Positions 39,537 through 45,815 of a DNA stretch of 64,000 bases are shown here, one piece after another. A model generated the notes under the pieces. That model worked only from the letters and a program-made list of their open reading frames with translations. It was not told the DNA's origin and did no database searches. The stretch is from a phage, in assembly GCA_017676145.1 (NCBI GenBank), contig GCA_017676145.1_3628.1. One strand, written 5' to 3'. Position numbers and translations under genes: made by a program. Every line of letters begins with the position of its first letter. Within the stretch, counting starts at the first letter, position 1.

Positions 39537-39855
39537 CGTTTATGTTCAGGCAAGGTCGCTAGTCTTGCCCCGCCATTTTCAGGCAGCTGCATGTCTCCAT
39601 GCAGACCAGACTATATCTTATAAGCTATAACAACAGCTTACCCTCCCGTTTCGAATCGCTTGATTCTACGTCTTTCGACTAGTCGTTGAACGTTCATCCT
39701 CTCGGATGCTTCGCTGCGGATTATCTAAATCAACACTCTGTTACCATACCTTCGATCTCTCTTCGAAGCCTCTATTATGTTACCATAACAGGTTGGTGGT
39801 GTTAATAATAAAGATTTCCCCGCAATTAGGGAGGTTTTACGAGAGCTACAAATTA
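39537..39855 (-). mobile_element. group I intron (no ORF)
   Basis: minus-strand P AATTGCGGGGAAATC (39813-39827), Q TAATCCGCAGCGAAGC (39708-39723), R GTTCAACGACTAGTCG (39676-39691), S AAGATATAGTCTGG (39606-39619) in canonical order; candidate guide sequence GCTCTC pairs with exon end GAGGGU; stops in all frames. Confidence 0.7.
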
Positions 39856-40281
39856 ACCCTCATCGAAGCAAACCATGGTGTACTCAAGCCCTTGATGGTT
39901 AAGCTTATCTTGGACATACTCCATGTGGCAGTATTTTACAACGGCCCCTTTTTTGCTCCTGTCCCACTTGCCAGTGCTCGGATCAAACCGTGGAAAAATA
40001 AACTTATGATCCTTCTCTCTGAACTTTGGTTTAATGTTTTCAGGCAGATCACTGTAAATAGCTACTGCTTTAGGCCATAGACCTCCTTCACCCTCCAGCT
40101 GCGGGGTTGTTCTTCGGAACATAACCACAGAGCTGTGTGGGTCATCAATAATTTTAAGTGGCATTAGCTGCAAGAGGAACGACTTGCCAGAACCGGCTGC
40201 ACCTCCGATCACCAAAATATCTGCATCGTTCTCAAGGATCATCTTCTGCTTTTCAGAACACGGTCCGTAAATCTTAGACAT
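39856..40281 (-). CDS. terL: terminase large subunit, exon 1 (ATPase N-terminus)
   Basis: Walker A GGAAGSGKS and Walker B MVCFDE in translation; ORF ends at a stop that lies inside the intron. Confidence 0.75.
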
Positions 40282-41629: not shown

Positions 41630-41728
41630 GGTGCTAGGTGATGGAATCGAACCACCTATGTATTCAACGACTACCTCGTCTATTTTCAGGATTAAAAATC
41701 CTCGCCCTTGCCAAAGGGCTTACCTAGC
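41630..41728 (-). tRNA. atypical tRNA-like gene, anticodon UUU (Lys) candidate, with about 30 nt variable region
   Basis: perfect 7 bp acceptor GCTAGGT/ACCTAGC, D-arm GCCC-TTTGGCAA-GGGC, anticodon arm GAGGA-TTTTTAA-TCCTG, T-arm GGTGG-TTCGATT-CCATC; extra hairpin GACGA-GGTAG-TCGTT in variable region. Confidence 0.45.
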
Positions 41729-42031: not shown

Positions 42032-42119
42032 TGGTGGTGAGTGATGGAGTCGAACCACCCGAATCGCAATGATAACAGATTTACAGTCTGCCCCGCTACC
42101 CCTACGGAATTAACTCACC
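42032..42119 (-). tRNA. tRNA-Tyr (anticodon GUA), long variable arm
   Basis: acceptor GGTGAGT/ACTCACC, anticodon arm GCAGA-CTGTAAA-TCTGT, T-loop TTCGACT, CCA encoded. Confidence 0.65.
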
Positions 42120-42770: not shown

Positions 42771-42800
42771 TATCACGTGATAGGTGGATTTTATCACGGC
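42771..42800. promoter_or_regulatory. operator-like palindrome TATCACGTGATA plus TATCACGGC half-site
   Basis: 12 bp perfect palindrome at 42771-42782 and a repeat of the TATCAC half-site at 42792-42800, just upstream of 42421-42759. Confidence 0.25.
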
Positions 42801-43104
42801 AAATACTGATTGTCAAGTTCGCCGCAGGGTGGTATTCCCTGCGACTTGCCCAGCGTCCTGGACCAGAAAGACCCAACAAGTGGGTTACCAGAGACCCATT
42901 ACCGCGCTTTGGCTCGACCTTATTACAGGTTGGCTGGGGTCACATCGTCATGTGCTGGCTGCCCCTACCATTTTAAGTGTGGTGCACTATCAAGCCCTCT
43001 AAGGGGAACTCAGCATTCTCCGAACCCTGTTTCAAAGCATCCGGAGATAAAGCCATCAAACTCATCTTTAAATTGGATATTCATCATGATACACGAAAAC
43101 AACC

Positions 43105-43622: not shown

Positions 43623-44201
43623 TCAACGTTCGTAGTAAATCTTATTCAACATTACCTCATCGTTTGCAGAAAGGATATCAAGATATGCATCACCAAATCT
43701 GCCTGCAACAACCTCTGCATGATACATCACTTCGTCAACATCGTCAAGAGTGATAACCGGATGACCATATCTTTCTGAATATTGCCTCAGGGTGCGATGT
43801 AACGAGTCGTCATCATATGCAGACTTTTTAATATCACAAACACGACGAATGGCCTTGATGTCGAAAAAACCTGTGCGATACCACCCAAGAAAAAAGTTCC
43901 GTGTGGTGTCAACATCTACATCAATACCATCAAGAACTTTATCTACAAGATAGCTGTCATCCTTTGGACCAGCGTCCTTAGTGCGAATGTAGTTGCCATC
44001 TTTTCCAGGCGATAGCTCCTTCTCATCACCAACCTGCATGCCATCATTTGGCGGTGTTAGCCACTTATCCGGATGCTTACGATCACGAGCGTTAGAATGA
44101 TTACGCTGGAAACCTGGCTTCCACTTGAAAGTTTTCTCCATCTGTTCTTCATTCTGATAACGTTTTGCAATCTTTTCGCGGTCATCTTTGCGTGAACTCA
44201 T
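43623..44201 (-). CDS. hypothetical protein
   Basis: 192 aa ORF with GAGGAGG Shine-Dalgarno upstream of ATG at 44201. Confidence 0.4.
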   Translation of the reverse strand: MSSRKDDREKIAKRYQNEEQMEKTFKWKPGFQRNHSNARDRKHPDKWLTPPNDGMQVGDEKELSPGKDGNYIRTKDAGPKDDSYLVDKVLDGIDVDVDTTRNFFLGWYRTGFFDIKAIRRVCDIKKSAYDDDSLHRTLRQYSERYGHPVITLDDVDEVMYHAEVVAGRFGDAYLDILSANDEVMLNKIYYER

Positions 44202-44706
44202 AACTGCCTCCTCTTCAAGTTATAGAAAAACTCACTGTATCGCTTTGTAACGAGCTTTTCTATCAAACTGGTGCGATTGCCTTACTTGGTATAGTTTACG
44301 CAGCTGTGTGGCGATTTAGGGGCCTTCCTGTCCGTTTCCACACATAAACTTTAACTAAACTCGCGCGGGAGGCTCTCAACCGACTCCTTACGGCGCTGGC
44401 AAGCTTTCGTCGGTGGTCCACATTAGTGCTCGGCCTTTGGCCTGCGCTATCGCTTCGCTCCCACACATGTTAACAGTCCTGCATGTATGCACTCCTGTCA
44501 TTGTGTGCACTATGGAGGCCCGGCATCTCGCCCCTCGTAGGCGAGTGCCAATGAAGGGCCGACACTACCAATAGTAAGTAATAAATTTAAAACATGGTAC
44601 TTAGGATCTAGTATATTCTACATAAGTTAAGTATATGTACTTTAGTACCATAAGTACTAGATCTTTTATTTTTTATTATTTAGTTATTTTAGTTATATTC
44701 TTTATG

Positions 44707-44787
44707 TGTCCGTATTGCGGACAGTTAGTGTCCGTATTACGGGCAGATGTGTCCGCGTGACGGACAGTAGTGTCCGTATCACGGACA
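44707..44787. repeat. iteron array: four 17 bp dyad-symmetric repeats at 21-22 bp spacing (origin or operator candidate)
   Basis: TGTCCGTATTGCGGACA (44707-44723), TGTCCGTATTACGGGCA (44729-44745), TGTCCGCGTGACGGACA (44750-44766), TGTCCGTATCACGGACA (44771-44787); adjacent AT-rich tract 44600-44700. Confidence 0.6.
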
Positions 44788-44862
44788 GTTACTACCCTCT
44801 GCTCTTGGATGGACATAAAACATACGAATCCTTATAGTGCAGATATTTAAGTTTTCACTGGT

Positions 44863-45213
44863 CTAACCAGTTGTTGACATTCGAATAACCTCTTCTGGTG
44901 GCAAAACTTTGGAAAATGTGCATCTTTTACCTCTCCCTTGTGTGGATATTTCAACCACTCCTGCACATTCTAAAGTTTTAACGCACGCTGCTGCTTTTGT
45001 TTTCTTTATCCCAACATCTGCTGCAATTTTCCTTGTGCTGGGTGTGAAGCGTGAATTTCCTCCAAGCTTATACCAGTTGTGCAGGTAGCAGTATACGATC
45101 TTGTCATACAAGTCAAGAACAACAACCTCCCCGGTTGTGTCATTCAAAACTTTTGACATAGACAGTATTTCAAGGGGGACTTTAAGATATAGCAGCTTAT
45201 CCCCATCTTTCAT
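44863..45213 (-). CDS. helix-turn-helix DNA-binding protein (candidate iteron-binding or replication initiator)
   Basis: 116 aa; PSTRKIAADVGIKKTKAAACVKTLECAGVVE has helix-turn-helix character; gene ends about 75 bp from the iteron array. Confidence 0.4.
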   Translation of the reverse strand: MKDGDKLLYLKVPLEILSMSKVLNDTTGEVVVLDLYDKIVYCYLHNWYKLGGNSRFTPSTRKIAADVGIKKTKAAACVKTLECAGVVEISTQGRGKRCTFSKVLPPEEVIRMSTTG

Positions 45214-45260
45214 ATCTCCTGATTCTCCTTGTGTGGCAATTTTCTTTAAAATAGCAGGGA

Positions 45261-45815
45261 TTACTCCCCGCTGTCAATAGCAAGACTCATTGCAATACGG
45301 TATGCCTCTTCTAATGGTAAGAGTCTCCCCCACACATCCCAACCGACATCAAACTGCCTGCCAAACAACTGTTGCGTGGTTCCGTGAGCATGACCGAACA
45401 GTTGGACTGATCCGTGATGCTTTCTGTTCCACGTTGCAAACTGGTAATGACTCATACAGATCAAATTCTTGTTGTGGCGAAACTCGTAATAATCTACAAC
45501 CTCATGATAGAACTCTTTCATAATTCTGACAGTCGTCCTTGTGTCATGGTTGCCACGAACAAGAATAATATGTCCGTTCAACATATTTAGAATATCTGGA
45601 AGTAAGTTGTTGATATTCTTATCATTAGTGCACGCAATATCCCCCAAGTGGAACACAGTGTCTGCAGGTGACACAACAGAGTTCCACTCGGTGATGATTC
45701 CAGCATTCATACTGTCAAGATTGTGATCATACTGAGATCTGTGTTTTTGACACGAGTCAAACTCCATGACCCGCTGGTGGAGAAAGTGTGTGTCACTTGT
45801 TACAAAGTATTTCAT
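45261..45815 (-). CDS. calcineurin-like metallophosphoesterase (candidate RNA 3' end-healing phosphatase)
   Basis: start at internal ATG 45815 with GAGGAA Shine-Dalgarno; motifs SDTHF, LGDIACTND, RGNHD, GHAH. Confidence 0.6.
   Translation of the reverse strand: MKYFVTSDTHFLHQRVMEFDSCQKHRSQYDHNLDSMNAGIITEWNSVVSPADTVFHLGDIACTNDKNINNLLPDILNMLNGHIILVRGNHDTRTTVRIMKEFYHEVVDYYEFRHNKNLICMSHYQFATWNRKHHGSVQLFGHAHGTTQQLFGRQFDVGWDVWGRLLPLEEAYRIAMSLAIDSGE

Follow-up and report, generated by a model that had tools for sequence, protein, structure and literature searches.

The question raised by positions 44220-44590 of the 64,000-nucleotide stretch of phage DNA analyzed here (GenBank assembly GCA_017676145.1, contig GCA_017676145.1_3628.1; this whole stretch is henceforth the window) is what a GC-rich, apparently gene-free block might do directly beside a predicted origin of replication. 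The window derives from an rV5/FV3-like E. coli phage of the genus Vequintavirus, and the region around the block is 90-99.6% identical to 119 phage records of this genus (rV5, FV3 and their relatives). Using comparative sequence analysis we identify in the block a set of ordered hairpin cassettes, two of which, SegA and SegB, recur on small E. coli plasmids that look like satellites of such phages. We tentatively propose, while placing the idea somewhat short of an even chance, that the block is the initiator-independent flank of an origin, that its hairpins act as single-stranded DNA signals, and that satellites have copied them.

A conserved non-coding block

An earlier note on this DNA, made from its letters alone, had described the block as richer in GC than its flanks, poor in open reading frames (ORFs) and endowed with several potential stems, and on these points it was right. 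The GC fraction of 200-nt windows across 44200-44600 is 0.47-0.555 against 0.34-0.46 in the flanks, and that of the core (44264-44570) is 0.55, with 0.19 in the adjacent 44571-44705 and a window mean of 0.44. No ORF of 60 or more residues is present on either strand, the longest being of 56 (44296-44466, minus strand) and 53 residues (plus strand). Folding yields z = -3.0 for the SegB hairpin (44514-44566) and z = -2.5 on both strands for the full 399 nt. The placement is likewise as described, between the iteron/AT-rich region with its four repeats (44706-44791) and the gene at 43623-44201, whose Shine-Dalgarno sequence GAGGAGG lies at 44207-44213. A search against Rfam bears out the statement that the cores of known introns are absent, and the block falls into no catalogued RNA family: Rfam 15 has no match in the block at gathering thresholds, and at E <= 10 the sole hit is rli43 (21 bits, against a threshold of 100), which falls on the AT-rich flank and not in the block. 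The satellites have no Rfam match either, and ARAGORN predicts neither tRNA nor tmRNA in the block.

In rV5 the counterpart of the block is the gap between ORF77 and ORF79, in which a 56-aa 'ORF78' is annotated, and the block might encode this small basic protein (44296-44466, minus strand). This frame is open in 9 of the 10 vequintaviruses compared, and in a metagenomic relative (IMGVR_UViG_3300010279_000001, the one relative in IMG/VR; here L005) an indel within it keeps the reading frame. However, the start of ORF78 is a GTG devoid of a ribosome-binding site (RBS), several frames on both strands are just as open in the ten genomes, as expected at such a GC content, and the stems shown below to covary run across the frame. 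Moreover, the frame is cut short in L005, and the substitutions are mostly non-synonymous. Given that start signals and synonymous bias are missing from all these frames, and that ORF78 ends early in the most divergent genome, the block is non-coding; we regard a protein-coding ORF78 as extremely improbable.

Taking the window as the reference and comparing it with nine other vequintaviruses, we found that SegB is 96-100% identical (invariant in 9 of the 10 genomes and 96% identical in L005) and that a module at 44362-44467 is 92-100% identical, against 65-95% at the third codon positions of the ORF77 homologue (the gene at 43623-44201). The contrast is sharpest in L005, with 96% for SegB, 92% for the module and 65% for third codon positions. 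This genome has no homologue of ORF79 and its iterons are unrelated to those of the window, but the block is kept up to the edge of the AT-rich segment. As judged from this contrast, the block is under purifying selection and, since L005 keeps it beside other iterons, it appears to be independent of the initiator/iteron set. Covariation was not seen within Vequintavirus, a comparison that is uninformative because the sequences are too similar and the stems invariant. Scans of viral, genome and metagenome collections with 14-mers and 18-mers gave matches nearly all of which are due to chance, the genuine ones being vequintavirus loci (L005, L250, L308, L314 and L316) and satellites (L243 and L263).

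Hairpin cassettes shared with apparent satellite plasmids

Dissection of the block reveals the following elements, in minus-strand order:

44514-44566, minus strand: SegB, a three-tier hairpin (GGCCC/GGGCC, GGCA/UGCC, CUCGCC/GGCGAG) with a conserved 6-nt internal loop and a 7-nt apical loop, directly adjoining the AT-rich segment
44462-44507, minus strand: variable hairpin (CACACA...UGUGUG), the 5' half of which is deleted in rV5 and typing phage 5 (18 nt in the alignment)
44362-44467, minus strand: the 106-nt octamer-SegA module, which comprises the next five elements
44460-44467, minus strand: octamer UGUGUGGG, the start of the module
within 44362-44467, minus strand: small hairpins GCGAAGC and GGCC-AAA-GGCC
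44417-44424, minus strand: linker AAUGUGGA
44379-44414, minus strand: SegA hairpin
44362-44371, minus strand: CUCCCGCGCG, the end of the module, which can pair with the octamer to form a helix termed P1
44305-44344, minus strand: E module, a UGUGUGG...CCACACA hairpin enclosing CCCCUAAAUCGCC, which is also found twice in satellites
44222-44263, minus strand: near-invariant 13-bp AU-rich inverted repeat with a 16-nt loop, ending 9 nt before the RBS of the ORF77 homologue

The variable hairpin and P1 compete for the same UGUGUG strand, and the pairing of the E module is kept at only 81% within Vequintavirus. The hairpin at 44222-44263 is paired in 99% of alignment cells, folds with z = -2.3, and may act as an operator or in the control of translation.

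Two patches of the block, SegA (44362-44424) and SegB, are 84-87% identical to small E. coli plasmids. The cassette region was recovered from two metagenome contigs and from seven plasmids of complete genomes, which are 13.2-13.7 kb long (one of them is assembled as a 39.6-kb trimer); the loci include L329 (NZ_CP020521.1, whole), L243, L004 and L337-L341. RefSeq annotates on these plasmids a major capsid protein, a baseplate protein and a tape-measure protein, and their identity to vequintavirus proteins is 50% for the baseplate protein, 45% for a second protein and 25% for the tape-measure protein. Another product of the plasmids is a winged-helix protein of 303 aa that weakly matches replication initiators, among them 'replication initiation O-like'; this initiator-like protein differs from that of the phage, and so do their own iterons. 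On the strength of this gene content, the 13-kb plasmids look like plasmid-borne satellites of rV5-like virulent phages. We found no report of such satellites in the searchable literature and no satellite in IMG/VR.

No nucleotide similarity between the 13.7-kb satellite and ~134 kb of helper genome is stronger than that of SegA and SegB, the sole other non-coding match being of 24 nt. In all 9 satellite copies the cassettes are located between the iterons and a sigma-70-like promoter, which precedes an operon with the initiator-like gene. The satellites carry an array in which each cassette starts with UGUG(UG)UGGG and continues with between one and three short hairpins; the content of this array varies from plasmid to plasmid: SegB is absent from most satellites, and those of type d' are devoid of the conserved inner part of SegA. 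Between the phage and the type d satellites the inner hairpin and the internal loops of SegA are identical.

Selection for hairpin formation

Comparison of the phage cassettes with those of the satellites revealed compensated changes in the stems. Between the phage and satellite L003 the SegB segments are 87% identical, and 4 of the 6 substitutions constitute two compensated pairs, with none one-sided (P = 0.005). Between the phage and the type d satellites the outer stem of SegA changes from ACCGAC/GUCGGU to GCUGCC/GGCAGC, which amounts to three compensated pairs (P = 0.0005), and the type d' satellites have a third sequence at this stem, GUCCGGAU/AUCCGGAC. Both P values are conservative, as they disregard the need for the new bases to pair. 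Three more compensated pairs are seen in cassette c between satellites, and one-sided changes are few, namely one in the SegA comparison and one in cassette b. In light of these compensated changes across lineages, the formation of the hairpins is itself under selection. The potential stems pointed out in the earlier note are thus borne out, with the modules retained and the stems covarying. Taken together with the conserved loops, the selected hairpins suggest that a common factor recognizes them.

These results bear on two alternative explanations. The first is that the block has no present function, being either a decayed mobile element, an option that the earlier note had raised, or a tolerated product of recombination between helper and satellite. 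Such a history would sit well with the shuffled cassette content of the satellites, with the deletion of one hairpin in rV5 without apparent harm, and with the 44-nt patch common to T4-like phages in a neighboring GC-rich block (see below). However, the modules are conserved far above third codon positions, each genome has them as a single copy at one locus, terminal repeats are missing, and none of 5,426 E. coli genomes has a chromosomal match to the block; together with the compensated stem changes this makes a lack of function very improbable. A miniature inverted-repeat transposable element or decayed mobile element was rejected on the same grounds of copy number, missing terminal repeats and purifying selection.

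The second alternative is that the cassettes are another kind of shared DNA site, such as a packaging recognition site or a site for recombination or resolution via extruded cruciforms, their proximity to an origin being incidental. Satellites typically copy the packaging signal of their helper (reviewed in PMC10085698), the satellite-helper DNA similarity is at its strongest in SegA and SegB, and the stems are perfect palindromes. Against this, double-stranded recognition sites keep their sequence, yet the stems covary, and neither SegB nor the inner SegA is universal among the satellites. The terminase genes lie ~4 kb off, and a non-coding region that the satellites share with a 2.2-kb ORF-free stretch of the helper is an equally good packaging candidate. 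We consider such a site improbable.

The predicted origin and a proposed role of the cassettes

The genes at this locus are all on the minus strand, as part of the unit that the authors of the rV5 genome call genes 81 to 27 (PMC3606486). In minus-strand order the block is preceded and followed by:

45277-45248, minus strand: sigma-70-like promoter upstream of the ORF79 homologue, the first element in this order
44863-45213, minus strand: 116-aa winged-helix protein (PHROG 12838), the homologue of rV5 ORF79 and probable origin-binding initiator
44706-44791: four tandem 21-22 bp iterons (GTGTCCGTATnnCGGACAG), each with internal dyad symmetry, from a repeat and inverted-repeat search
44571-44705: AT-rich segment of 135 bp (GC 0.19) with two GATC sites and long AT-rich inverted repeats, a candidate unwinding element
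(the block)
44199-44213, minus strand: RBS GAGGAGG (44207-44213) and ATG of gene 43623-44201, the ORF77 homologue

The ORF79 homologue matches the 'replication initiation protein' profile PHROG 12838 with E = 2.5e-80, shows matches slightly under the cut-off to the Pfam families HTH_36 and DUF6945, and is annotated as 'replication initiation protein' in some records. The ORF77 homologue (minus strand) belongs to PHROG 12226, which is listed there as of unknown function. A protein search for wider relatives of the two found homologues only within Vequintavirus. Thus, tandem iterons, an adjacent AT-rich segment and an initiator gene occur together as in iteron origins of the lambda type, and the layout resembles that of lambda, on which basis the region is a putative origin. 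The earlier note had not recognized this probable origin, nor the sharing with satellite plasmids, which together form the most telling context of the block. A cluster of DnaA boxes was considered and rejected: TTWTNCACA is not enriched, with 4 one-mismatch sites in ~900 nt against a window average of one per ~340 nt, and the origin region has no perfect DnaA box nearby.

We suggest the following scenario. The ordered cassettes (SegB, the dispensable hairpin, the octamer-SegA module and the E module) lie directly beside the AT-rich segment and the iterons; when the AT-rich segment opens, the cassettes would fold as single-stranded DNA, and in this folded form they might be read by replication proteins other than the initiator as structure-specific signals for loading or priming. 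Candidate users would be the phage-encoded helicase-primase of the T7-gp4 type (PMC3606486 also has a helicase/primase) or the host primosome. Satellites could then copy the cassettes while using their own initiator and iterons, which would explain why near-identical copies of SegA and SegB lie beside iterons in elements that bring their own initiator. Starting from the observed position, conservation, hairpin covariation and sharing with satellites, this proposal would have the iteron region as the origin, DNA as the acting molecule and replication as the process served. It is the best-supported of the readings considered in view of the position, the initiator independence, the Watson-Crick stems, the placement of the satellite promoter, and the polarity of the octamers discussed below.

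Several observations weigh against it. Helicase-primases of the T7 type are not known to need hairpins. SegB folds with z ~ -3 in all four cases, that is, on both strands and as RNA or DNA, and the larger module is inconsistent in this regard. The block lies inside the minus-strand transcription unit and terminator prediction finds nothing between the promoter at 45277-45248 and the block; hence it is almost certainly transcribed, and its hairpins can form in RNA too. Two conserved helices, P1 and the hairpin at 44222-44263, contain G.U pairs that are possible on the minus strand only. The octamer pattern is not clean in the window, and the same octamer is abundant in a single orientation in an ORF-free region of FV3 (see below). 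Finally, the origin itself is only predicted, and the authors of the rV5 genome could not place the origin of that phage (PMC3606486).

The main rival to this reading is that the hairpins work as a structured RNA in a minus-strand early transcript, starting at the promoter upstream of the ORF79 homologue or at an unmapped one; we found no transcript map for these phages in the literature. Such an RNA could be a processing or stability element, a site for an RNA-binding regulator or antiterminator of the helper, or the precursor of a ~105-nt RNA excised at P1, and satellites would have copied the hairpins to answer to the same factor. In line with this, the block is co-oriented with the surrounding genes with no terminator predicted after the promoter. 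P1 (UGUGUGGGAG with CUCCCGCGCG) needs three U.G pairs, which restricts it to the minus strand; it is in the minimum free energy structure of 9 of 12 lineage representatives, and one-sided changes in L005 and L340 leave it paired as G.U. Likewise, an A-U pair of the SegA outer stem becomes G.U in L005 and Aya, the hairpin adjacent to the RBS has two minus-only G.U pairs, and a 113-nt module of the window beats its shuffled versions only as minus-strand RNA (z = -1.8, against 0.1 for the plus strand and 0.25 and 0.68 for DNA). Protein-binding RNA hairpins typically combine conserved loops with covarying stems, and the replication operon of satellite P4 offers a precedent for control by a structured leader RNA (CI).

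On the other hand, Rfam has no match for such an RNA even at E = 10, and the folding preference of the window module for minus-strand RNA is not reproduced in the satellites. The helices with G.U pairs, P1 and the hairpin at 44222-44263, show no covariation, whereas the stems supported by covariation are all pure Watson-Crick. Of the one-sided changes ~5-6 stay paired as G.U on the minus strand against 3 that yield A.C, a difference that is not significant. In the satellites the strong sigma-70-like promoter follows the cassettes and no promoter was detected before them, promoter prediction finds none in the AT-rich flank of the window, and beyond the satellite iterons the octamer is reversed, on a side where no co-oriented gene is annotated. 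We consider a structured RNA possible but on the unlikely side. The supported stems are pure Watson-Crick and fold equally on both strands, and as such they are compatible with either strand as the acting one and with DNA as well as RNA. Counting for DNA, though noticed post hoc, four satellite triloops (GTA, GTA, GAA and GGA) have the plus-strand form C-GNA-G or T-GNA-A; C-GNA-G triloops are unusually stable in DNA.

Some other RNA-level and repeat candidates were dropped. A riboswitch or cis-regulatory leader could plausibly have a junction closed by P1, but ~150 nt separate this junction from the RBS, and the satellites have a promoter separating their cassettes from the genes. By-eye likenesses to GGA sponges of the CsrA type, to CRISPR repeats and to k-turns were likewise set aside.

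Orientation and rrn resemblance of the octamer

The block has one octamer (44460-44467, minus strand), whereas each satellite array has 3-4. It is identical to boxC of the rrnH leader of E. coli (positions 355-362 of locus L344), and satellite L339 shares 13 nt (CAAUCUGUGUGGG) with that leader. Mimicry of the rrn leader as a whole was nevertheless rejected: the local alignment score of the window block is 18 against a shuffle mean of 18.8, that of L339 is marginal (5 of 300 shuffles score as high), and the boxA sequence UGCUCUUUAACAA has no match with up to 3 mismatches at 44200-45300. The only boxA candidate is GCUCGUUACAA, a gapped resemblance downstream of the octamers, at 44236-44246, in the loop and 5' arm of the hairpin at 44222-44263; in the satellites a boxA-like CUCUUUA is buried within a hairpin arm. 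A role of the octamer as a genome-wide promoter or terminator motif was rejected too, as the other copies in the window lie in coding sequence and have no extended consensus.

In the satellites the octamer TGTGTGGG is directed away from the iterons on both sides, with three minus-strand copies on the left and four plus-strand copies on the right in L329, and four and five, respectively, in L243. L005 has one octamer on each side of the AT-rich segment. The blemish on this pattern in the window is a minus-strand copy at 45330. The satellite mirror image could in part have arisen from the joining of two helper-derived regions, since a 2.2-kb region of FV3 is similar to the non-coding part on the right-hand side of the satellites.

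That region (FV3 104328-106594, outside the window; L343 17381-19647) is ORF-free and lies between convergent transcription units. It contains six CCACACA octamers, all oriented alike, along with repeated CCTGAAGAG units and repeats of the GTTTAC type, and shares a 24-nt stretch and these units with the second non-coding region of the satellites. It may be a second cis-acting region for packaging or origin function.

A further and rather unlikely reading gives the cassettes a broader role, either as modular cis signals of an undescribed kind, read by structure, that plug a satellite into the replication or RNA handling of its helper, or as an array of small structured RNAs released when the rrn-boxC-like octamers pair with downstream complements.

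Other features of the region

The earlier note had also linked the block to a second one with which it shares a short string:

42800-43100, minus strand: second GC-rich, ORF-poor block, directly upstream of a strong sigma-70-like promoter (42816-42788)

The shared string GTGCACTAT is indeed present, at 44505-44513 and 42982-42990, but kinship of the two blocks does not follow. By our arithmetic ~0.3-0.9 shared 9-mers are expected by chance between two blocks of ~300 nt, which makes the link weak; BLAST of one against the other finds no further similarity, and folding of the second block is no better than chance (z = -1.3). Within it a 44-nt non-coding patch (42894-42937) is 89-95% identical to a site in ~580 T4-like genomes. 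This site precedes vs.8 in RB14, and in T4 it falls within the annotated 5' end (N-terminus) of that gene. The vs.8 reading frame is broken by a stop in the window, rendering the patch non-coding there. This suggests a short element exchanged between unrelated coliphages.

L005 (positions 1975-2420) has unrelated TCTGATGCA-type repeats in place of the ORF79 homologue and the GTGTCCG iterons; the breakpoint falls exactly at the edge of SegB, and the initiator/iteron unit has thus been swapped as a module. Elsewhere in the window, a group I intron (39587-39865, minus strand; Rfam RF00028, 85 bits) falls where rV5 has an annotated three-part gene for the terminase large subunit and an HNH endonuclease. 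A tRNA cluster has two irregular members: 1) a 99-nt tRNA-like gene at 41630-41728, for which ARAGORN reads a four-base anticodon (Rfam tRNA, 35.5 bits); 2) a tRNA at 42035-42119 seen by Rfam only (39 bits), where rV5 has an annotated tRNA-Tyr. As to the records themselves, eighteen GenBank 'Campylobacter phage' entries (MG0656xx; host given as Campylobacter jejuni or Campylobacter) are 94-100% identical to E. coli vequintaviruses at this locus and are probably mislabelled or contaminant assemblies, and one vequintavirus genome is filed as an E. coli plasmid (CP057073.1).

Implications and comparison with known systems

The region offers a concrete candidate for the origin of rV5-like phages, with an initiator-specific part and a part that appears initiator-independent and structure-dependent. 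In our view the most interesting outcome is that a virulent coliphage is linked to its apparent satellites: the cassettes connect virulent phages used in typing and therapy sets with 13-kb satellite-like plasmids that have capsid, tape-measure and baseplate proteins of their own. If the cassettes are a shared handle, they would provide a direct route to how a satellite exploits a virulent helper, and could flag such satellites, now filed as small plasmids, in genome data.

Among known systems, the block may be compared with single-strand initiation (ssi) and primosome-assembly signals (ssiA and ssiB of RSF1010, the n' sites of ColE1 and G4-type signals), here by their general descriptions and not by sequence. 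Like these, the hairpin segments lie directly beside the iterons and AT-rich part of a (here predicted) origin, their structure is kept more than the sequence of the stems, and they would work regardless of the initiator that opens the origin. Unlike them, there are several different cassettes, each after a GT-rich octamer, and these belong to a virulent myophage and its satellites, not to a plasmid. The origin of lambda likewise has four iterons of ~20 bp with internal symmetry followed by an AT-rich segment, and its O protein may have a counterpart in the small winged-helix protein classed with replication initiators and in the weakly 'O-like' protein of the satellites. However, the iterons are downstream of the initiator gene and not inside it, no loader like lambda P was identified here, and lambda has no comparable 300-nt hairpin block.

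With the E. coli rrn leader the block shares the identical octamer, which can pair with a downstream C-rich strand and thereby enclose a structured segment, but taken as a whole the two are not significantly similar, and near the block no boxA is found at up to 3 mismatches. The CI RNA of P4 and the RNase III sites of T7 early mRNA similarly have conserved hairpins, bearing internal loops, that lie in untranslated stretches of early or replication operons, and the structured leader of P4 is that of a satellite. In contrast to these, the stems here are of only 15-16 bp, and in the satellites a promoter intervenes. The element thus belongs to no described family, and its closest analogues are the priming signals that flank plasmid origins or the structured leaders of phages and their satellites.

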